In this document: piece by piece, positions 13,166 through 24,190 of the stretch
How positions within the stretch are numbered: the stretch's first letter is position 1
How the letters are laid out: every line of letters starts with the position of its first letter
Origin: Escherichia coli
GTDB taxonomy: Bacteria; Pseudomonadota; Gammaproteobacteria; Enterobacterales; Enterobacteriaceae
Length of the DNA: 64,000 nt
Assembly: GCF_001677475.2 (NCBI RefSeq)
Contig: NZ_CP015229.1
Strand: one strand, 5' to 3'
Notes under the pieces: model-generated
What the model was told of the DNA's origin: nothing
What the model saw: the letters and a program-made list of their open reading frames with translations, nothing else
Database searches by the model: none
Translations under genes and position numbers: made by a program

Positions 13166-15208
13166 TCAGCCCTTAATGCCGTAATGCTCCAGCATCGCAT
13201 CCAGTTGCGGTTCACGACCACGGAAGCGTTTGAACAGATCCATCGGCTCTTCTGAACCACCACGGCTCAGAATGTTGTCGAGGAACGACTGTCCAGTATC
13301 ACGGTTGAAAATGCCCTCTTCCTCAAAGCGCGAGAAGGCATCTGCCGCCAGCACGTCGGCCCACAGGTAGCTGTAGTAACCTGCGGCATAACCACCGGCG
13401 AAAATATGGCTGAAAGCGTGCGGGAAGCGGCCCCAGGATGGAGACGGTACTACGGCAACCAGTTTCTTGATTTCTGCCAGGGTTTCGAGGATTTTCGCCC
13501 CCTGATCCGGGCGGAACTCGGCATGGAGGCGGAAATCGAACAGGCCGAACTCCAGCTGGCGCAGAATAAACAGCGCCGCCTGGTAGTTCTTCGCTGCCAG
13601 CATTTTATCCAGCAGCTCTTTCGGCAGCGGTTCGCCGGTTTCATAGTGACCGGAGATAAACGCCAGCGCCTCCGGCTCCCAGCACCAGTTTTCCATAAAC
13701 TGACTCGGCAGTTCGACCGCATCCCACGGCACCCCGCTGATACCAGACACACCAGCGGTTTCAATGCGGGTCAGCATATGATGCAGGCCGTGACCGAACT
13801 CATGGAACAGAGTGATCACCTCGTCGTGAGTGAACAGCGCCGGTTTACCATTCACCGGGCGGTTGAAGTTACAGGTCAGATACGCGACCGGTTTTTGCAG
13901 CGAACCGTCGGCTTTACGCATCTGGCCTACGCAGTCATCCATCCACGCCCCGCCGCGCTTGTTTTCACGGGCATACAGGTCGAGGTAGAAGCTGCCGCGC
14001 AGTTCGTTGTTCTCGTCATACAGTTCGAAGAAACGTACATCCGGATGCCAGACATCAACATCTTTACGCTCTTTAGCGGTGATGCCGTAAATACGTTTCA
14101 CCACTTCAAACAAGCCGTTAACCGCTTTGTTTTCCGGGAAGTACGGACGCAGTTGTTCGTCACTGATGCTGTAGAGGTGCTGTTTTTGTTTTTCGCTGTA
14201 GTACGCGATATCCCACGGCTGCAACTCATCCACGCCAAATTCGGCTTTAGCGAAGGCACGCAGTTGCGCCAGCTCTTTTTCACCTTGCGGACGCGCGCGT
14301 TTTGCCAGATCGGTTAAGAAATCCAGCACCTGCTGCGGATTTTCTGCCATTTTAGTGGCAAGGGATTTAAAGGCGTAGTTTTCAAAGCCCAGCAGTTGCG
14401 CCAGTTCGTGACGCAGCGCGAGGATCTCTTCCATCACCTTGCTGTTGTCCCACTTACCGGCGTTCGGACCTTGATCGGAGGCGCGGGTGCTGTAAGCGCG
14501 ATACATCTCTTCGCGCAGAGCCTGGTTGTCGCAGTAGGTCATTACCGGCAGGTAGCTTGGGATATCCAGCGTCAGCAGGTAGCCTTCAAGTTCTTTCGCT
14601 TCAGCCTGGGCTTTTGCCGCAGCCAGCGCGCTTTCTGGCATCCCCGCCAGTTCCGCTTCGTCGGTAACGAGTTTGGTCCAGCCCATTGTCGCATCGAGGA
14701 CGTTGTTGCTGTACTGGTTGCCCAGCTCGGAAAGACGAGTGGCAATCTCACCGTAACGCTGCTGTTTCTCTTTCGGCAGACCGATGCCAGAGAGTTCAAA
14801 GTCGCGCAGTGCGTTATCAACCGCTTTCTTCTGCGCCGTGTTCAGCGTGGCGTAATGATCGCCATCGCGCAGGTCGCGATACGCTTTATACAGCCCTTCA
14901 TGTTGCCCTACCCAGGTGCTGTATTCCGACAGCAGCGGCAGGGTTTGTTCGTAGGCTTCACGCAGTTCCGGGCTATTTTTCACCGAGTTCAGGTGGCTGA
15001 CCGGGGAGAAGATACGCCCCAGCACATCGTCCACTTCCGCCAGCGGCTGGCAGAGATTTTCCCAGGTGTACGGTGCTCCTTGCGCTACTACGCGCTCCAC
15101 ATTTTCGCGGCAGTCGTTCAGCGCCTTAGTCACGGCTGGAACGACATGTTCCGGGAGAATTTTAGAAAACGGAGGCAATTCAAAGGGAGTCAGTAACGGA
15201 TTCGTCAT
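13166..15208 (-). CDS. prlC: Oligopeptidase A (M3 family Zn metallopeptidase)
   Basis: 680 aa from [17 protein letters not shown]; HEFGH zinc motif present. Confidence 0.95.
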
Positions 15209-15410
15209 TAGCGCAGTCCTGGTTAAAGAGGTTAAGGAAGCGCTCAACAGGCGCTTTACATAATGTGTGTAGCATGGGGTTAAGTGTAGTGAATTTCAAT
15301 GAGAAACGTTACGCTTTCGCGGCGGCGGCCTCTTTTCGGTATACTGTCCTGATAGGCTTTTGTGCGCCCCGAATACGGGCCGATTTTTACTTACCGGAAC
15401 ACCTTTACCC

Positions 15411-16253
15411 ATGCTCAGTTATCGCCACAGCTTTCACGCTGGCAACCACGCCGACGTCCTTAAACATACCGTTCAGAGCCTGATCATCGAGTCGCTGAAA
15501 GAGAAAGATAAACCGTTTCTCTATCTCGATACCCACGCAGGGGCCGGGCGTTATCAGTTAGGCAGCGAACATGCCGAGCGTACCGGCGAATATCTCGAAG
15601 GTATCGCCCGTATCTGGCAGCAGGACGATTTGCCTGCGGAGCTGGAGGCGTACATCAATGTGGTAAAACACTTCAACCGTAGCGGTCAGTTGCGTTACTA
15701 CCCCGGTTCACCGTTGATTGCCCGTCAGTTACTGCGTGAACAGGACAGCCTGCAACTGACCGAACTGCACCCGAGCGATTACCCGTTGCTACGTTCTGAA
15801 TTTCAGAAAGACAGCCGTGCGCGCGTCGAAAAATCCGACGGTTTCCAGCAGCTTAAGGCCAAACTGCCGCCGGTTTCCCGCCGTGGTTTAATACTTATCG
15901 ACCCGCCGTATGAAATGAAAACCGACTATCAGGCGGTGGTCAGCGGGATAGCAGAAGGCTATAAACGTTTCGCCACTGGCACTTACGCACTGTGGTATCC
16001 GGTGGTTCTGCGCCAGCAAATTAAGCGCATGATCCACGACCTGGAAGCGACCGGCATTCGCAAAATTCTGCAAATTGAACTGGCGGTACTGCCAGACAGC
16101 GATCGCCGTGGCATGACCGCTTCCGGCATGATTGTGATTAATCCGCCGTGGAAGCTGGAACAGCAGATGAATAACGTGCTGCCGTGGCTGCACAGCAAAC
16201 TGGTTCCGGCTGGTACCGGGCACGCCACCGTAAGCTGGATCGTGCCGGAGTAA
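15411..16253 (+). CDS. rlmJ: 23S rRNA m6A2030 methyltransferase RlmJ
   Basis: 280 aa from MLSYRHSFHAGNHADVLKH. Confidence 0.9.
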   Translation: MLSYRHSFHAGNHADVLKHTVQSLIIESLKEKDKPFLYLDTHAGAGRYQLGSEHAERTGEYLEGIARIWQQDDLPAELEAYINVVKHFNRSGQLRYYPGSPLIARQLLREQDSLQLTELHPSDYPLLRSEFQKDSRARVEKSDGFQQLKAKLPPVSRRGLILIDPPYEMKTDYQAVVSGIAEGYKRFATGTYALWYPVVLRQQIKRMIHDLEATGIRKILQIELAVLPDSDRRGMTASGMIVINPPWKLEQQMNNVLPWLHSKLVPAGTGHATVSWIVPE

Positions 16254-16324
16254 TTGCAGCCATTGCTGGCACCTATTACGTCTCGCGCTACAATCGCGGT
16301 AATCAACGATAAGGACACTCTGTC

Positions 16325-17677
16325 ATGACTAAACACTATGATTACATCGCCATCGGCGGCGGCAGCGGCGGTATCGCCTCCATCAACCGCGCGGCTATGT
16401 ACGGCCAGAAATGTGCGCTGATTGAAGCCAAAGAACTGGGCGGCACCTGCGTGAACGTCGGCTGCGTACCGAAGAAAGTGATGTGGCACGCGGCGCAAAT
16501 CCGTGAAGCGATCCACATGTACGGTCCGGATTATGGTTTCGATACCACTATCAATAAATTCAACTGGGAAACGTTGATCGCCAGCCGTACCGCCTATATC
16601 GACCGTATTCATACTTCCTATGAAAACGTGCTCGGTAAAAATAACGTTGATGTAATCAAAGGCTTTGCCCGCTTCGTTGATGCCAAAACGCTGGAAGTTA
16701 ACGGTGAAACCATCACGGCCGATCATATTCTGATCGCCACCGGCGGTCGTCCGAGCCACCCGGATATTCCAGGCGTGGAATACGGTATTGATTCTGATGG
16801 CTTCTTCGCCCTTCCTGCTTTGCCAGAGCGCGTAGCAGTTGTTGGCGCGGGTTACATCGCCGTTGAACTGGCGGGCGTGATTAACGGCCTCGGCGCGAAA
16901 ACGCATCTGTTTGTGCGTAAACATGCGCCGCTGCGCAGCTTCGACCCGATGATCTCTGAAACGCTGGTCGAAGTGATGAACGCCGAAGGCCCACAGTTAC
17001 ATACCAACGCCATCCCGAAAGCGGTAGTGAAAAATGCCGATGGCAGCCTGACGCTGGAGCTGGAAGATGGTCGCAGTGAAACGGTGGATTGCCTGATTTG
17101 GGCGATTGGTCGCGAGCCTGCCAATGACAACATCAACCTGGAAGCCGCTGGCGTTAAAACTAACGAAAAAGGCTATATCGTCGTCGATAAATATCAAAAT
17201 ACCAACGTTGAAGGTATCTACGCGGTGGGCGATAACACGGGGGCAGTGGAACTGACACCGGTAGCAGTTGCAGCGGGTCGCCGTCTCTCTGAACGCCTGT
17301 TTAATAACAAGCCGGATGAGCATCTGGATTACAGCAACATTCCGACCGTGGTCTTCAGCCATCCGCCGATTGGGACTGTTGGTTTAACGGAACCGCAGGC
17401 GCGCGAGCAGTACGGCGACGATCAGGTGAAAGTGTATAAATCCTCTTTCACCGCGATGTATACCGCAGTCACCACTCACCGCCAGCCGTGCCGCATGAAA
17501 CTGGTATGCGTTGGACCGGAAGAGAAGATTGTCGGAATTCACGGCATTGGTTTTGGTATGGATGAAATGTTGCAGGGCTTCGCGGTGGCGCTGAAGATGG
17601 GGGCGACCAAAAAAGACTTCGACAATACCGTCGCCATTCACCCGACGGCGGCAGAAGAGTTCGTGACCATGCGTTAA
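16325..17677 (+). CDS. gor: Glutathione reductase
   Basis: 450 aa; GGGSGG FAD motif; redox-active [13 protein letters not shown]. Confidence 0.95.
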
Positions 17678-17683
17678 ATGTTA

Positions 17684-17714
17684 AAGGGCTAAGAGTAGTG
17701 TGCTCTTAGCCCTT
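17684..17714. terminator. Hairpin after gor (shared terminator with the convergent dinQ transcript)
   Basis: AAGGGCTAAGAG...CTCTTAGCCCTT inverted repeat. Confidence 0.4.
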
Positions 17715-17730
17715 AATTACGTTTCCGCTA

Positions 17731-17814
17731 TCAGTTCAGAAGCTGAAGCAGAAAGCGGATCAGTTCCAGCAGCGCAATTAACGCCCCAAGAACGATGATT
17801 GCTTTATCAATCAC
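17731..17814 (-). CDS. dinQ: DinQ, 27-aa membrane toxin peptide (type I toxin-antitoxin)
   Basis: Minus-strand ORF GTG-IDKAIIVLGALIALLELIRFLLQLLN-TGA matches the recalled DinQ peptide; below the ORF-track size cutoff. Confidence 0.75.
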   Translation of the reverse strand: MIDKAIIVLGALIALLELIRFLLQLLN

Positions 17815-18005
17815 CCGTTTTCTCCATGCGATGGAGTGAGAATGCATCCGCTTACTCATCCACTGCCTGTCACGGCGCATGTCTCATTGTTAGATAAGAA
17901 CTCTCTCACTCCGGCCAGAGCATCAGTTAACGGCACCACCCGTACTTCTGACCAGGACTTTGAAAGCGTTTATGCGCATTACCAGAGTGAAAATGCCTCA
18001 GAGCT

Positions 18006-18025
18006 AACTGGATAATCATACAGTA
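18006..18025. promoter_or_regulatory. LexA (SOS) box upstream of dinQ
   Basis: aaCTGgataatcataCAGta fits CTG-N10-CAG, about 190 nt upstream of the dinQ ORF on its coding strand. Confidence 0.5.
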
Positions 18026-18088
18026 CATGCAGGTTATAAAACCAGCACGTCCTTGCAATAGTTTCAGTATGGTATTAGCATTGATGCG

Positions 18089-18171
18089 TTAGATGATGGC
18101 TATCTCACTCCAGCCAGAGCCACCAACTCTGGGCTGAAGAGTAAAAAAACCGACGCAAAGTCGGTTTTTTT
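18089..18171 (+). ncRNA. agrA: agrA-like antisense sRNA (repeat unit 2 of the gor-arsR region)
   Basis: ~80-nt unit ending in a CCGACGCAAAGTCGG hairpin plus T7 on the + strand; shares the TCTCACTCCAGCCAGAGCC motif with the dinQ leader. 5' end not determined. Confidence 0.4.
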
Positions 18172-18323
18172 ACGTCCGGATTCGGACAAAGCTTGGTACG
18201 GCAGCGACCCGATGAAAGTATATAAATCCTCTTTCACCAACATGTATAGCAAACTGTCCCTTCTCCAGCTGAAGAAATCGCTAATTCTTGCAATGTTAGC
18301 CACTGGCTAATAGTATTGAACTG

Positions 18324-18405
18324 TTAGATAAGAGCTCTCTCACTCCAGCCAGAGCCACCAACTCTGGGCTGGAAAGTAAAAAACCGACGCAAAGTCGGTT
18401 TTTTT
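18324..18405 (+). ncRNA. agrB: agrB-like antisense sRNA (repeat unit 3)
   Basis: Near-identical copy of the unit at 18089..18171 with the same intrinsic terminator. 5' end not determined. Confidence 0.4.
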
Positions 18406-18557
18406 ACGTCCTGATTCAGACCTCCTTTCAAATGAATAGCCAACTCAAAATTCACACCTATTACCTTCCTCTGCACATACACATTCGTTAAGTCATATAT
18501 GTTTTTGACTTATCCGCTTCGCAGAGAGACACTACCTGCAGCAATCAGGAGCGCAAT

Positions 18558-18911
18558 ATGTCATTTCTGTTACCCATCCAACTGTTCAAAATTCTTGCCG
18601 ATGAAACCCGTCTGGGCATCGTTTTACTGCTCAGCGAGCTGGGTGAGTTATGCGTCTGCGATCTCTGTACCGCCCTCGACCAGTCGCAGCCCAAGATATC
18701 CCGCCATCTGGCATTGCTGCGTGAAAGCGGGCTATTGCTGGACCGCAAGCAAGGTAAGTGGGTTCATTACCGCCTATCGCCGCATATTCCAGCATGGGCG
18801 GCGAAAATTATTGAGCAGGCCTGGCGATGTGAACAGGAAAAGGTTCAGGCGATTGTCCGCAACCTGGCCCGACAAAACTGTTCCGTAGACAGTAAGAACA
18901 TTTGCAGTTAA
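18558..18911 (+). CDS. arsR: Arsenical resistance operon repressor ArsR
   Basis: 117 aa; ELCVCDLC As(III)-binding motif in the HTH region. Confidence 0.95.
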   Translation: MSFLLPIQLFKILADETRLGIVLLLSELGELCVCDLCTALDQSQPKISRHLALLRESGLLLDRKQGKWVHYRLSPHIPAWAAKIIEQAWRCEQEKVQAIVRNLARQNCSVDSKNICS

Positions 18912-18964
18912 AAAATTAGCTAAACACATATGGATTTTCGCATGTGTTTTATCCGGGAGGCATT

Positions 18965-20254
18965 ATGTTACTGGCAGGCGCTATCTTTGTCCTGACCATT
19001 GTATTGGTTATCTGGCAGCCGAAAGGTTTAGGCATCGGCTGGAGTGCAACGCTCGGCGCAGTACTGGCGTTAGTTACGGGCGTGGTACATCCGGGTGATA
19101 TTCCGGTGGTGTGGAATATCGTCTGGAACGCGACGGCGGCGTTTATTGCCGTTATTATCATCAGCCTGCTGCTGGATGAGTCCGGCTTTTTTGAATGGGC
19201 AGCGCTGCACGTCTCACGCTGGGGCAATGGACGCGGTCGCTTGCTGTTCACCTGGATTGTCCTGCTCGGTGCTGCCGTTGCAGCTCTGTTTGCCAATGAT
19301 GGTGCGGCGCTGATTTTAACGCCAATTGTCATCGCCATGCTGCTGGCTTTAGGGTTCAGTAAAGGCACGACGCTGGCGTTCGTGATGGCGGCCGGATTCA
19401 TTGCCGATACCGCCAGCCTGCCGCTTATTGTCTCCAACCTGGTGAATATCGTTTCCGCAGATTTCTTTGGCCTCGGCTTTCGCGAATACGCATCGGTGAT
19501 GGTGCCGGTGGATATCGCCGCGATTGTTGCCACGCTGGTGATGTTGCATCTCTATTTCCGCAAAGATATTCCGCAGAACTACGACATGGCGCTGCTGAAA
19601 TCTCCCGCAGAAGCGATTAAAGATCCTGCTACGTTCAAAACTGGCTGGGTTGTTTTACTGCTTCTGCTGGTGGGATTTTTCGTCCTGGAACCGCTCGGCA
19701 TTCCGGTCAGCGCCATTGCGGCAGTGGGCGCGTTGATATTATTTGTCGTCGCTAAACGCGGTCATGCGATTAATACGGGTAAGGTGCTACGCGGTGCACC
19801 CTGGCAGATTGTCATCTTCTCGCTCGGCATGTATCTGGTGGTTTATGGCCTGCGCAATGCCGGGTTAACGGAATATCTTTCTGGCGTACTCAACGTGCTG
19901 GCGGATAACGGCCTGTGGGCCGCGACGCTCGGCACCGGATTCCTCACCGCCTTCCTCTCTTCTATTATGAACAATATGCCGACGGTACTGGTTGGCGCGT
20001 TGTCCATTGATGGCAGCACGGCATCTGGCGTTATCAAAGAAGCGATGGTTTATGCCAACGTGATTGGCTGCGATTTGGGGCCGAAAATCACCCCAATTGG
20101 TAGCCTGGCTACGCTACTCTGGCTGCACGTTCTTTCGCAGAAGAATATGACTATCAGCTGGGGATATTACTTCCGTACAGGGATTATCATGACCCTGCCT
20201 GTGCTGTTTGTGACGCTGACTGCGCTGGCGCTACGTCTCTCTTTCACTTTGTAA
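18965..20254 (+). CDS. arsB: Arsenite efflux pump ArsB
   Basis: 429 aa from ATG ([11 protein letters not shown]...) with GGGAGG RBS; the ORF-track start at 18944 is a GTG. Confidence 0.95.
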
Positions 20255-20266
20255 TGAGATATTGAT

Positions 20267-20692
20267 ATGAGCAACATTACCATTTATCACAACCCGGCCT
20301 GCGGCACGTCGCGTAACACGCTGGAGATGATCCGCAACAGCGGCACAGAACCGACCATTGTCTATTATCTGGAAACCCCACCGACGCGTGATGAACTGGT
20401 CAAACTTATTGCCGATATGGGGATTTCCGTACGCGCGCTGCTGCGTAAAAACGTCGAGCCGTATGAGGAACTGGGCCTTGCAGAAGATAAATTTACTGAC
20501 GATCGGTTAATCGACTTTATGCTGCAACATCCTATCCTGATTAACCGTCCGATTGTGGTGACGCCGCTGGGAACTCGCCTGTGCCGCCCCTCGGAAGTGG
20601 TGCTGGAAATTCTGCCAGATGCGCAAAAAGGCGCGTTCACCAAGGAAGATGGCGAGAAAGTGGTTGATGAGGCGGGTAATCGCCTGAAATAG
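20267..20692 (+). CDS. arsC: Arsenate reductase ArsC (glutaredoxin-coupled)
   Basis: 141 aa; MSNITIYHNPACGTSRN with catalytic Cys. Confidence 0.95.
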   Translation: MSNITIYHNPACGTSRNTLEMIRNSGTEPTIVYYLETPPTRDELVKLIADMGISVRALLRKNVEPYEELGLAEDKFTDDRLIDFMLQHPILINRPIVVTPLGTRLCRPSEVVLEILPDAQKGAFTKEDGEKVVDEAGNRLK

Positions 20693-20712
20693 CTAAAGGG
20701 GGATATGCCCCC

Positions 20713-21033
20713 TTATTTGTTCTCCGCGGCTCCTTCGCCATTTGTTTTGCTATTTACGCAGCACTCCTCGCGTAAGAATTCAATTATCGCTTCCAGCATT
20801 GCGTATTGCGAAACACACATCAGCGTCCGACTCTCACGGTTTTGTTTGACCAGTCCTACCGATACCAGTGCTGATATATGGTGGCTGAGTGTGGAGCCAG
20901 GTATCCCAAGCTGCTTTTGCAACTCACCGACCGGCAACCCTTGTTCCCCAGCTTTGACAAGATGTTTAAATATGAACAAACGGGTCGGGTGACCTAGCTC
21001 TTTCAGCGCTTTAGCAACTTCTTCCAACTGCAT
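20713..21033 (-). CDS. ArsR/SmtB-family metalloregulator (second copy, non-K-12)
   Basis: 106 aa; winged-HTH core (LGHPTRLFIFKHL...PGSTLSHHISALVSVGLV); C-terminal vicinal Cys pair (REECCVN) rather than the ELCVC site. Confidence 0.8.
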   Translation of the reverse strand: MQLEEVAKALKELGHPTRLFIFKHLVKAGEQGLPVGELQKQLGIPGSTLSHHISALVSVGLVKQNRESRTLMCVSQYAMLEAIIEFLREECCVNSKTNGEGAAENK

Positions 21034-21140
21034 ATGACACCCCCTTTGTCTGGTTGATATTTCGATAATACCAGAAATATCTTGATCTGAATTTTATTTC
21101 GATTATTCTGGAAATATAGATTTATTCACTGAGGTTACGT

Positions 21141-22142
21141 ATGAGTAGTTGGCTTGCGATGCTGCAAGATGCCGCAGAGATGTTTGTGTTTCTCGCCGTC
21201 GAGCTTTCTTTGCTGTTTATAGTGATTAGTGCCGGTGTCAGCCTGATAAGACAAAAGGTGCCAGACCATAAAATCCAGCAGATGATGGGGGCCAGAAAAG
21301 GGAGAGGCTATCTCCTGGCTGCTCTGTTGGGAGCCGTTACCCCGTTCTGTAGTTGCTCGACAATCCCCATGTTACGTGGATTGTTATCAGCGAAAGCCGG
21401 GTTTGGTCCGACTCTCACTTTTTTATTTGTTTCCCCATTACTTAATCCCATTATCGTCGGGTTAATGTGGGTGACCTTTGGCTGGAAAGTTACCTTGTTG
21501 TACGCGATTATCGCCGCCGGCGTCTCCGTACTTGCCAGTATTATCCTGGATTCTCTGGGATTTGAACGTCATATCATTGCCAGTAAAAGCTCATCAGCAA
21601 ATTGTTGTGCTCAAGCCAAAACTTCGCCGGGGACGACATATACGCCAATAAAAGTGAGTTGCTGTAGTCCAGCGGCTAAAGCCATTGAGAAACCCGTAGT
21701 TACCTGTTGCAGTACCAAAGCTGTGGTAAGTATTAATCCCATAAAACTAGCCACCAAAGATGCGTTGCAACAGTTTAAAGATGTACTGCCATATCTTTTG
21801 TTGGGGGTATTAATAGGCTCTTTTATTTATGGCTTTATTCCCTCAGAGTGGATTGCCGCTCATGCAGGGGCAGATAATCCCTTCGCCATCCCATTGAGCG
21901 CCGTTGTCGGTATTCCGCTGTATATCCGGGCAGAGGCGGTTATCCCTCTGGCATCTGTTCTGATGACAAAAGGAATGGGTCTGGGAGCATTAATGGCATT
22001 AATCATCGGCAGTGCCGGAGCAAGCCTGACGGAAGTGATATTACTTAAATCAATGTTCAGAATGCCGATGATAGCTGCATTCCTGACGGTTATCTTAGGT
22101 ATGGCTATCTTGATGGGCTATTTGACTCAAATGCTATTTTAA
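21141..22142 (+). CDS. arsP: ArsP-like permease (putative organoarsenical efflux; DUF318 family)
   Basis: 333 aa polytopic membrane protein with TPFCSCSTIP motif (the ArsP signature as recalled); central loop with three Cys-Cys dyads. Confidence 0.65.
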   Translation: MSSWLAMLQDAAEMFVFLAVELSLLFIVISAGVSLIRQKVPDHKIQQMMGARKGRGYLLAALLGAVTPFCSCSTIPMLRGLLSAKAGFGPTLTFLFVSPLLNPIIVGLMWVTFGWKVTLLYAIIAAGVSVLASIILDSLGFERHIIASKSSSANCCAQAKTSPGTTYTPIKVSCCSPAAKAIEKPVVTCCSTKAVVSINPIKLATKDALQQFKDVLPYLLLGVLIGSFIYGFIPSEWIAAHAGADNPFAIPLSAVVGIPLYIRAEAVIPLASVLMTKGMGLGALMALIIGSAGASLTEVILLKSMFRMPMIAAFLTVILGMAILMGYLTQMLF

Positions 22143-22720
22143 ATAGATGCCAGCAGTAAACTATAAGGAGCATTGTGAGTGCCTTATCCTTCTGAGTAGA
22201 AAATCATAGATAGGATAATCCTTAAAAAGCACAAATAACTTAACTAATGCTTTGAGAATGATGACGGATCCATCAGTAAGTCATCAATCGACAATCACCA
22301 CGCAATCATGCTTCTCTTACATTTTATCGGAGAAGCAATGTCTCTTTGTCTCAGTGCTATCCCCCCTTTTAAAGGGCAGATTTCAGTCGCCAATACAACA
22401 CATTTTTAAATACACTTTAACCTGGTTCATTATTACACATCTAAAACATCACAAAAATATCACTTTACACACTATCGGAGAACATCATAACTTTTTAAAA
22501 TGAGCGCTTTTTGATAGTTATTAACGTATTCTTTTACGATACTATCACTGCCCTTTTTTATACACAAATATTACCGGGTGGAGATAAAAGGGAAGTCAAA
22601 GGTAATTATATCAGGAAGATATGACGCATTATATTTATTGTGTGTAGAAGAAAATCCATTCCTGTTCTAATTATCCAATTTAAAAATCCTAGCATAAACA
22701 GATGATGAATAAGGAATGTT

Positions 22721-23944
22721 ATGTCAATTGACTTTACCCCAGGTATAATAAATATTTATCACGGCGATATTTATAACTGCACAACAAATACCGATAATGC
22801 TAAAACGCCAGACACACCGAAGTGGCCTTGCGATAATTGGGAAGAACAACAACCCATTAATTCCACATTCTCTGGAGAAGGATATACCTCTGATCAATAT
22901 GATTTAGCGCAACACCAACTTCAACAAATTTATGCGTGCCGCACGAACACCACATATACAAATGCAGACTACTCCAAAGTTGTGGCTCAACTTGTAAGTC
23001 TTATTACTAACATTGAAACGATAAGTTCGACACCACTTACGCGGCAGGCACAGGGACTACTTAATCAAATTAATAACATTAGATACGAAAAGAACAAAAG
23101 TGCTGAATGTCGAATCATTGTTGTCGCTAATCCTAAACCCGACAAGGCAATCATAACTAAAATTAGCGTAGAAGAGGGAATCCCCATAACATTCAGTGTC
23201 CAAACCATGTTTTCAGATACTAATTTTATTGCTGAACAACGAGCTGACTTACCAACTAATATAAAAGATATTCAAAGCCTGTATCAAAAAATGACGAAGT
23301 TATATATTGCGCACAGTGAAAATAAAAACAGGATGAAAGTCTTTGCCGGAACCAACTTTATTGATTTCAATATGACAGGACAGAACCTGTCCGGGTTCGT
23401 TCTAACCTTGTCAAGGTTTTATTTCGAAGATCTACTTAATATAAATTTCACTGACGCAAATTTAGGTGACACTATTTTTTCACATAAAGAACACCCTACC
23501 CCCAAATTATATAAAGATGGACAATATCTTGACAAACAAATCGAAGGTTTATTTTCAACATTATTAACCATTAATGACAACTTTTTACGAGCAAAAGCGG
23601 AAATTGCTTCGACAATAATTAAATTTTTAGAGACCAGGATAACCAATCTTTCATACAACGACATATTAAAATATCAGCAAGAATTCAAAAAAGAATGTTA
23701 TAAGCAAGTTAAAGCCTTTACGACACTCTCTCGATACAATAAAATTCAAACATGGGCAGAAATGTCTGAATATCAATTCGAAGTATTTCAATACGAGACG
23801 CTTAACCCAAAAAAAATGTCACACACGCCTTATTTAAAGAGGCCACTTCCTAATGAAAAAGATATAAATTATGGGGTGGAAATAGAAATACCATCTGGCA
23901 AAAGAATTCGCTTATCAAATCATTATCAGAATATAATACCATAA
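22721..23944 (+). CDS. yhiS: YhiS-like protein, intact (407 aa), function unknown
   Basis: AT-rich ORF with AAGGA RBS at the K-12 yhiS position; no IS interruption. Confidence 0.7.
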
Positions 23945-24190
23945 TATTGATTATTAGCACTTTATAATCATTGAATAAAAATAGATTTTATGTAATTTTA
24001 AAACAAAGGGTTATATTATGGGGCGATGGATACTCATGCCACGCCCCAAAATAACGGAATTGAACTGAATCGAAGGGATATAAACATCAGACAGGTTTAC
24101 GTTACTATCAGGCATATCGCCTCAGAATCAGATGAAAACTATAAAGAAATATCTATTATGGCTTTAATATTTGTTGATAAGGATAGTAAC

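Follow-up and report, generated by a model that had tools for sequence, protein, structure and literature searches.

A regulator–permease pair next to arsRBC

We analysed a 64,000-nt stretch of the Escherichia coli contig NZ_CP015229.1 (assembly GCF_001677475.2), hereafter the window, in which a regulator gene of the ArsR/SmtB family and a permease gene of the PF03773 (ArsP_1) family stand beside the arsenic resistance genes arsRBC. The two genes are divergent, with a 107-bp spacer between them (21034..21140), and the unit begins 20 nt past the arsC stop codon, with arsC and the regulator gene convergent (Table 1). An earlier interpretation made from the letters alone (the sequence-only reading) had described a divergent ArsR-family regulator and permease right after arsC, and open reading frames (ORFs) for both are indeed found there. 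RefSeq names the products only ‘permease’ and ‘ArsR/SmtB family transcription factor’. The profile searches which that reading had proposed for both proteins yielded family assignments. The regulator matched HTH_20 (E 2.9e-14) and HTH_5 (the ArsR family) in Pfam and the NCBIfam model HTH_metalloreg (61.5 bits against a cut-off of 55), which places it in the ArsR/SmtB winged-helix fold, and the permease matched ArsP_1 (PF03773, E 7e-53) over its full length (residues 9-330).

The regulator is 32% identical to the neighbouring ArsR over 57 aa. It lacks the ELCVCDLC site (Cys32-Cys34-Cys37) of type 1 ArsR proteins, which is present in the neighbour, and instead carries a Cys-Cys pair (Cys91-Cys92) towards its C-terminus. 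The sequence-only reading had recognised the ArsR/SmtB core, the missing ELCVC site and the CC pair, all of which stand, but had overlooked a third cysteine, Cys73. Inspection of the alignment of 62 orthologous regulators revealed that all of them have Cys73, Cys91 and Cys92. The closest characterized relative is SpArsR (Sput200_1227) of Shewanella putrefaciens 200, whose target is the promoter of the adjacent arsP gene, Sput200_1226 (PMC12124457). We translated SpArsR from Supplementary Text S3 of PMC12124457 after the repair of two single-base drop-outs, which gave a protein of 105 aa with cysteines at positions 83, 101 and 102, in agreement with the published numbering. The window regulator aligns to it at 57.6% identity over 92 aa with zero gaps and with all three cysteines matched: Cys73 to SpArsR Cys83, and Cys91-Cys92 to SpArsR Cys101/Cys102. 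The same three-cysteine pattern (Cys74/92/93) is found in NdArsR, which is 42% identical to the regulator, Cys74 being the counterpart of Cys73.

The spacer contains two tandem repeats, each with an inverted repeat, which we denote operators 1 and 2. A 22-nt part of operator 1 (TTCGATAATACCAGAAATATCT, 21061..21082) recurs unchanged in the S. putrefaciens arsP promoter and is the predicted site of the regulator. Both operators are kept in the Citrobacter, Aeromonas and plasmid copies of the pair. For more distant relatives we scanned one genome per species and obtained 80 loci (L018-L097) with permeases ~50-74% identical to that of the window; the operator core (at most 3 mismatches) lies upstream of the permease in 51 of these, where chance would give ~3e-4 per locus. 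A promoter scan of the spacer found 3 sites, compared to 2.8 expected in shuffled sequence. Since consensus sites are no commoner than in shuffled sequence, the promoter positions are tentative.

Taken together, we consider it likely that the pair is an autonomous unit of two genes that detoxifies trivalent organoarsenicals, by analogy to the Shewanella system. Its substrates are probably methylarsenite (MAs(III)) and reduced aromatic arsenicals such as roxarsone(III) (Rox(III)). The assignment is decided by the regulator rather than by the permease, through the orthology of regulator and operator to SpArsR and its arsP promoter. The proposal of the sequence-only reading, a second arsenical unit made of an organoarsenical-type ArsR and an ArsP-type permease, is largely supported and best accounts for the SpArsR identity and the shared 22-nt operator stretch, as judged from sequence.

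Table 1 Features of the regulator–permease locus, in window positions
Feature	Position	Strand	Basis
arsR-arsB-arsC, canonical arsenite/arsenate unit	18558..20692	plus	NCBIfam and RefSeq annotation of near-identical locus
GC-rich hairpin between arsC and regulator gene, overlapping the regulator stop codon	20696..20714		terminator-like site
Regulator gene, 106 aa, ArsR/SmtB family, SpArsR type	20713..21033	minus	ORF and profile matches
Cys91-Cys92 codons, predicted two-coordinate methylarsenite site, C-terminal end of helix alpha5	20758..20763	minus	alignment
Cys73 codon, third cysteine, wing/alpha5 junction	20815..20817	minus	orthologue alignment
Promoter-like site TTGATA-18-TATCTT facing the permease gene, overlapping operator 1	21054..21083		consensus match only
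Operator 1, GATATTTC-N10-GAAATATC, perfect 8-nt inverted repeat	21056..21081		repeat search
Operator 2, imperfect copy ATTTCGATTATTCTGGAAAT	21093..21118		direct repeat, 37-nt spacing from operator 1, 73% identity
Permease gene, 333 aa, PF03773 (ArsP_1, TC 2.A.119), predicted trivalent organoarsenical exporter	21141..22142	plus	ORF and Pfam
TPFCSCSTIP motif, residues 67-76	21339..21368	plus	read from sequence
Hypervariable Lys-rich, Cys-rich central loop, residues 151-194, three vicinal Cys-Cys pairs	21591..21722	plus	predicted local distance difference test (pLDDT) <50

The solved structures closest to the regulator are those of AfArsR (6J05; 33% identity, E 3.5e-10), YgaV (3CUO) and BigR (3PQJ), in that order. 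Cys91-Cys92 align with AfArsR Cys95/Cys96. The three-coordinate site of AfArsR (Cys95-Cys96-Cys102) is incomplete in the regulator, which has no counterpart of Cys102. No cysteine follows the CC pair in the Escherichia, Citrobacter, Aeromonas and plasmid regulators, the tail of the window protein being VNSKTNGEGAAENK. The tail is variable beyond residue 95, and among orthologues the sequence after the CC pair is free to vary. The regulator of another E. coli (L001 6135..6434) has 99 aa, ends in …VNSKTDG* and stops 21 nt sooner; the 106-aa frame of the window runs into the arsC terminator hairpin (20713..20733). The presence of YgaV and BigR as second and third best solved relatives would suit a sensor of thiol redox state, reactive sulfur or electrophiles, switched by a Cys91-Cys92 or Cys73-Cys91 disulfide or persulfide and controlling the export of an unrelated sulfur or organic compound; a weak match to the NCBIfam BigR model and a distant PF03773 gene located beside thioredoxin-like genes point the same way. 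We regard this as very improbable, since the BigR score (38 bits) is far under the cut-off of 155 bits, the closest characterized relatives are MAs(III) sensors, and sulfur-metabolism genes were not recurrent among the neighbours in the 80 loci. A reading as a defence system was rejected: PADLOC returned a generic winged helix-turn-helix (Csa3-like) for the regulator and nothing for the permease.

The permease

The permease contains the motif TPFCSCSTIP, of which P68, F69, C70, S71, C72, S73 and T74 are invariant in our alignment (A1). In ars-operon ArsP homologues C(S/T)C is universal, and in cluster 2 it is preceded by tPF (PMC4435449). The permease has this conserved element as TPFCSCS (residues 67-73, the tPF-CSC form of cluster 2), although the element is not specific. 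TPFCSCS(T/S) is found in most permease relatives, down to ~30% identity, and no motif is better conserved than the CSC tripeptide in the SO_0444 Cu/Zn exporters and in SaoE (bioRxiv 10.1101/2022.07.06.499078). The sequence-only reading had taken TPFCSCSTIP for the ArsP signature; the motif is indeed present in a PF03773 protein, but its core is shared with SO_0444 and SaoE, and we rejected the notion that it proves ArsP. An NCBIfam search of the permease returned no ArsP-named family. The nearest models were SO_0444 (109.7 bits, cut-off 300) and SaoE (NF040736; 87.6 bits, cut-off 325), and the permease is therefore a member of neither family. The genes for SAO ABC import were likewise not among the neighbours. 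Since the motif is not specific and PF03773 also holds Zn/Cu exporters, the substrate is not fixed by the permease sequence alone.

An alternative is an efflux unit for soft metals (Zn, Cu or Cd, perhaps Hg or Ag), in which the CSC motif and the central loop would bind thiophilic cations and the regulator cysteines would sense the metal. The best-matching family is a Cu/Zn efflux family, of which SO_0444 and Shew_3410 are required for Zn/Cu tolerance; CSC is common to metal-exporter families, the loop has many Cys pairs, and the three invariant regulator cysteines could form a trigonal metal site. We consider such a unit unlikely. The score of 109.7 bits against 300 leaves the permease outside the SO_0444 family, whose type of exporter is partnered by MerR/ZntR-type regulators and not by ArsR, whereas the window regulator and operator match a repressor that is known to respond to MAs(III), and the gene pair is repeatedly linked to ars genes and not to czc, cop or znt.

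We built an AlphaFold2 (AF2) model of the permease from 21 relatives (pLDDT 82, predicted template modelling score 0.77). In the model, a disordered loop (residues 151-194) separates two helical halves, which fits the layout of the PF03773 membrane domain, two repeats of the 4-transmembrane-segment type around a hydrophilic loop (PMC7176098). Each half has a pair of short helices broken at TPFC (67-70) or at YIR (261-263). Since the short helices are interrupted at TPFC, the cysteines of the CSC motif are located at a helix break, with Cys70 and Cys72 between short helices 55-66 and 71-83. The substrate sites of secondary transporters are often at such breaks. A phmmer search of the permease against the PDB gave 0 hits, and the best Foldseek match to the AF2 model had an E of 0.39 with TM-scores of at most 0.40; thus, no solved structure resembles the model and the fold gave no functional lead.

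The central loop ranges from 36 to 113 aa among relatives and has at least 2 cysteines in 67 of 69 of them (median 7). Across the scanned loci (L018-L097), these cysteines often occur as Cys-Cys pairs. The loop length varies even between the alleles of E. coli and E. fergusonii (permeases of 322-341 aa). From the positive-inside rule, the loop is probably cytoplasmic.

Distribution of the pair and its surroundings

Most of the 80 loci belong to marine Gammaproteobacteria, among them Vibrio, Shewanella and Photobacterium. In 54 loci an orthologous regulator (at least 45% identity) is no more than 600 nt away from the permease, and the regulator is the sole consistently recurrent neighbour (58 loci), followed by a LysR gene (16 loci). 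In the sister species Shewanella xiamenensis (L065), a regulator 92.6% identical to SpArsR adjoins a permease ~49% identical to that of the window, which ties the window permease indirectly to the Shewanella arsP. The co-inheritance of regulator, operator and permease across genera (51-58 of the 80 loci) was observed directly, as were the gene anatomy, the family memberships and the orthology of regulator and operator.

Among relatives, few pairs lie near ars genes (~4 of the 80 loci). The clustering of two arsenical systems in the sequence-only reading holds for the window, in which the pair directly follows arsRBC, but not for the subfamily in general. That the pair is part of an ars operon was rejected, as Aeromonas chromosomes, IncF-type plasmids from Salmonella and E. 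coli, and ~76 of the 80 loci carry it on its own. Because ars adjacency is so exceptional, we interpret the pair as an autonomous mobile unit. Where linkage does occur, it takes different forms. In Escherichia the pair is beside arsRBC, and in Citrobacter it is beside arsRDABC inside a lambdoid prophage. In Aeromonas tecta (L019 421..9068) it abuts an integrase-flanked island, arsR-arsD-arsA-gapdh-arsJ, and in Endozoicomonas (L042 3845..9388, L037) a one-strand string reads arsR-acr3-arsD-arsA-permease-regulator. The arsR of the A. tecta island is of the AfArsR type (CC…C), and the island also contains a phosphatase-like gene and arsC. The linkages arose several times independently, which fits an arsenical function and is weak as statistics alone.

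The position of the permease after arsD-arsA in Endozoicomonas, and of the pair against arsD-arsA in A. tecta, would also suit an additional exporter of inorganic arsenite or antimonite, induced by As(III) like arsRBC and perhaps working with the ArsA ATPase. ArsP has been proposed as an ArsA partner in the account given by PMC6205960, and some orthologous regulators have a third cysteine near the CC pair, at about the position of AfArsR Cys102. We assign this explanation a low probability for the window: the Escherichia regulator has no cysteine past the CC pair and the Escherichia locus has neither arsA nor arsD, having arsRBC only. SpArsR shares the three cysteines and shows hardly any response at 50 µM As(III), and As(III) is not moved by Campylobacter ArsP according to the summary discussed below. 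In Endozoicomonas and A. tecta, the permease may work with ArsA.

Several relatives occur in other settings. In about a dozen Vibrio loci (L026, L029, L032, L038, L040, L043, L049, L054, L055, L058, L076), the regulator is followed on its 3' side by a gene for a sigma-70-like protein of ~200 aa with a Cys-rich C-terminus (…ENCCELQ…CGC). On a Citrobacter plasmid (L013), a sigma-70-family gene precedes a distant PF03773 gene, which is followed by a thioredoxin-like gene. On an IncHI1-type plasmid (L012, NZ_MW800636.1, 5563..7023), a PF03773 permease of 49% identity, which has a small divergent helix-turn-helix regulator of its own, is next to tet(B)/tetR(B) in a Tn10-like region. A 74%-identical pair in E. 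coli E69 (L018, CP089930.1, 7599..8999), the E. coli genome of the one-per-species scan, has no ars-gene match within 8 kb.

The absence of the pair from K-12, as claimed in the sequence-only reading, was confirmed by comparison with MG1655, in which homology ends at window position 20691 and resumes at 22404. A 55-bp relic of the regulator 3' end, 85% identical to window 20745..20799, is found in K-12. It is located at NC_000913.3 ~3650814..3650868 (L098 4815..4869), between arsC and yhiS and beside a sequence resembling a repetitive extragenic palindrome. Because this relic remains in the K-12 spacer, we conclude that K-12 lost the pair by deletion, rather than that the pair was inserted in the lineage of the window. 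Of 5426 complete E. coli genomes, 2225 (~41%) have at least 80% of the region 20600..22300, and the E. fergusonii permease is ~90% identical. The best complete E. coli genome is at most 97.5% identical to the window over 14000..24000 and 98.3% over the regulator–permease pair; a divergent Escherichia lineage or a recombinant region is the probable source of the window.

A variant of the pair, with a permease ~75-81% identical, is carried by 647 PLSDB plasmids, 457 of them conjugative. The carriers include 400 from Escherichia and 186 from Salmonella. Frequent neighbours of the plasmid variant (L008-L011) are IS26, IncFII repA, a ProQ/FinO gene and blaCTX-M-55. Of 60 plasmid records sampled evenly, 18 had poultry or poultry meat as their source and 4 had swine or pork, which, taken without a host baseline, leaves enrichment unproven.

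The arsRBC products beside the pair score 232.5, 729.7 and 305.3 bits (ArsR, ArsB and ArsC) against their NCBIfam models, each above its cut-off, and correspond to an ArsR with the ELCVCDLC site (18558..18911), an ArsB antiporter and a Grx-type ArsC. The hairpin between arsC and the regulator gene is likely a bidirectional terminator for both, as judged from its sequence and position. Upstream of arsR, 118 bp (18304..18421) are 87% identical to the K-12 agrA/agrB small-RNA region, beside dinQ. Downstream of the permease are an intact yhiS-like ORF, slp and dctR. The yhiS-like ORF (22721..23944) encodes 407 aa and has a G+C content of 0.347, compared to 0.484 for the window. The yhiS of K-12 is a pseudogene interrupted by IS5, and that of another E. 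coli carries a frameshift.

Proposed function and comparison with known systems

The proposed function draws on experiments with relatives, namely the MAs(III) selectivity of SpArsR at the arsP promoter and the transport of MAs(III) and Rox(III) by Campylobacter ArsP. According to the summaries in PMC11868830 and PMC13236881, SpArsR is methylarsenite-selective (Chen, Nadar & Rosen 2017), sensing methylarsenite and not arsenite because two thiol ligands suffice for MAs(III). In E. coli ΔarsRBC, a reporter combining the arsP promoter and SpArsR responded at 0.1-1 µM MAs(III), with 73% of full derepression at 1 µM monomethylarsenite (MMAs(III)) and 9% at 50 µM As(III), whilst dimethylarsenite (DMAs(III)) and the pentavalent forms MMAs(V) and DMAs(V) gave no response (PMC12124457). 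For the permease family, the ArsP of C. jejuni (TC 2.A.119.1.1; Shen 2014 and Chen 2015, as summarised in PMC6205960 and PMC7176098) is the reference, and Campylobacter ArsP is described as exporting MAs(III) and Rox(III) and not As(III) in the summary of PMC6205960. By analogy, we infer that the E. coli proteins keep the specificities of SpArsR and ArsP.

In the mechanism that we propose, SpArsR-type repressor dimers would occupy the two tandem operators of the spacer when no inducer is present, and would shut off the permease gene and probably also the regulator's own gene. MAs(III), which needs two sulfur ligands, would bind to Cys91-Cys92, where the dimerisation helix ends, and thereby release the repressor. 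Arsenite would be a poor inducer because it requires three ligands and no third cysteine is properly placed. The 2017 study by Chen and colleagues reportedly found that an inserted cysteine gives SpArsR a response to As(III). The induced PF03773 permease would then expel MAs(III), presumably using the proton-motive force, as is described for Campylobacter ArsP (summary in PMC6205960). Cys70 and Cys72 in the broken membrane helix would constitute the substrate site, and the loop rich in Cys pairs may, more speculatively, capture MAs(III). Autoregulation, energy coupling, and the role and sidedness of the loop are parts of this scheme that we infer. A further-reaching interpretation, in which the pair is a common determinant of resistance to trivalent organoarsenicals that has escaped recognition, and its Cys-rich loop is an ArsD-like capture domain feeding the CSC site, is in our view doubtful; an ArsD-like capture loop could be a feature not described for Campylobacter ArsP.

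Several points weigh against a unit for trivalent organoarsenicals. On the permease side, the CSC motif is common to ArsP, SO_0444 and SaoE proteins, the nearest NCBIfam models are those of SO_0444 and SaoE even if both scores are sub-threshold, and the PF03773 members SO_0444 and Shew_3410 are located beside ZntR-like regulators and needed for Zn/Cu tolerance. On the regulator side, the invariant Cys73 could belong to a three-sulfur site across the dimer. An extra cysteine ~5 residues after the CC pair is found in 18 of 62 orthologues, mainly from Vibrio, and these may be sensors of arsenite or of a metal. The surroundings of ~76 of the 80 loci contain no ars gene. To our knowledge, the Shewanella permease itself has never been assayed for transport, and identities to the Shewanella pair of 57.6% (regulator) and ~49% (permease) leave room for a shift in specificity. 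Nevertheless, the match to SpArsR and the sub-threshold family scores weaken all three alternatives considered above, and detoxification of trivalent organoarsenicals is the function that we favour.

If this function is correct, many natural E. coli and their relatives would, unlike K-12, own a dedicated sensor and pump for methylarsenite. Methylarsenite, the most toxic common arsenic species, is made by anaerobic microbes of the gut and soil and is also formed from herbicides and feed additives that are organoarsenicals. A K-12-derived strain, AW3110, serves as a host for MAs(III) work. Another such host is MG1655 ΔarsRBC (PMC12124457). The unit may have gone unnoticed in E. coli because these K-12-derived hosts descend from a lineage that lacks it. 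Given the carriage of the pair by conjugative multidrug-resistance plasmids, many of them from poultry or swine, organoarsenical exposure could then co-select the plasmids, and a link between organoarsenical use and plasmid maintenance would become testable. The regulator and operator would also provide an E. coli-native part for a MAs(III) biosensor, a use to which SpArsR and the arsP promoter have already been put (PMC12124457).

Among known systems, SO_0444 and Shew_3410 (NF033936) share with the window permease the PF03773 family and the CSC motif. They differ in their regulators, which are of the ZntR/MerR type (SO_0443, Shew_3411) rather than ArsR/SmtB, and the Zn/Cu phenotypes are theirs. 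AfArsR of Acidithiobacillus ferrooxidans (PDB 6J05), a type 2, As(III)-responsive repressor, resembles the window regulator in the CC pair after alpha5 (LTENCC compared to LREECC) but is 33% identical, and each lacks a cysteine of the other: the window regulator has no equivalent of Cys102 and AfArsR has no counterpart of Cys73. NdArsR, from Noviherbaspirillum denitrificans HC18, belongs to a MAs(III)-inducible arsRM system and is closer, with 42% identity and the three-cysteine pattern. As reported second-hand in PMC12124457 (Zhang et al. 2022), it controls an arsM methyltransferase gene and not a permease, and DMAs(III) also induces it.

With C. jejuni ArsP the window permease shares the TCDB/Pfam family, the C-S-C cysteines and a transporter for inorganic arsenite nearby, a likeness judged by family and description and not by alignment. 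In contrast to Campylobacter arsP, the window permease has its own divergent repressor and a variable loop rich in Cys pairs. Work by Wang and colleagues in 2009 is said to have found arsP to be the first gene of an arsP-arsR-arsC-acr3 operon in Campylobacter. The 2015 study by Chen reportedly noted that only two cysteines are conserved in Campylobacter ArsP, and is said to have used NADH-energised vesicles for transport.

The Shewanella system is the most similar, with the gap-free alignment of the regulators, the same three cysteines, the operator identity and an adjoining PF03773 permease. The window regulator differs from SpArsR in having no 10-residue N-terminal extension and a longer, unrelated C-terminal tail. 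Its spacer of 107 bp compares to the 222 bp promoter used for Shewanella and has two tandem operators 37 nt apart, and the pair is located beside arsRBC, unlike the Shewanella arsP system, from which the specificity in E. coli is presumed by analogy. Thus, the pair is of a known kind, SpArsR/ArsP, and ordinary in mechanism; what sets it apart is its spread in Escherichia and on plasmids together with its absence from K-12.

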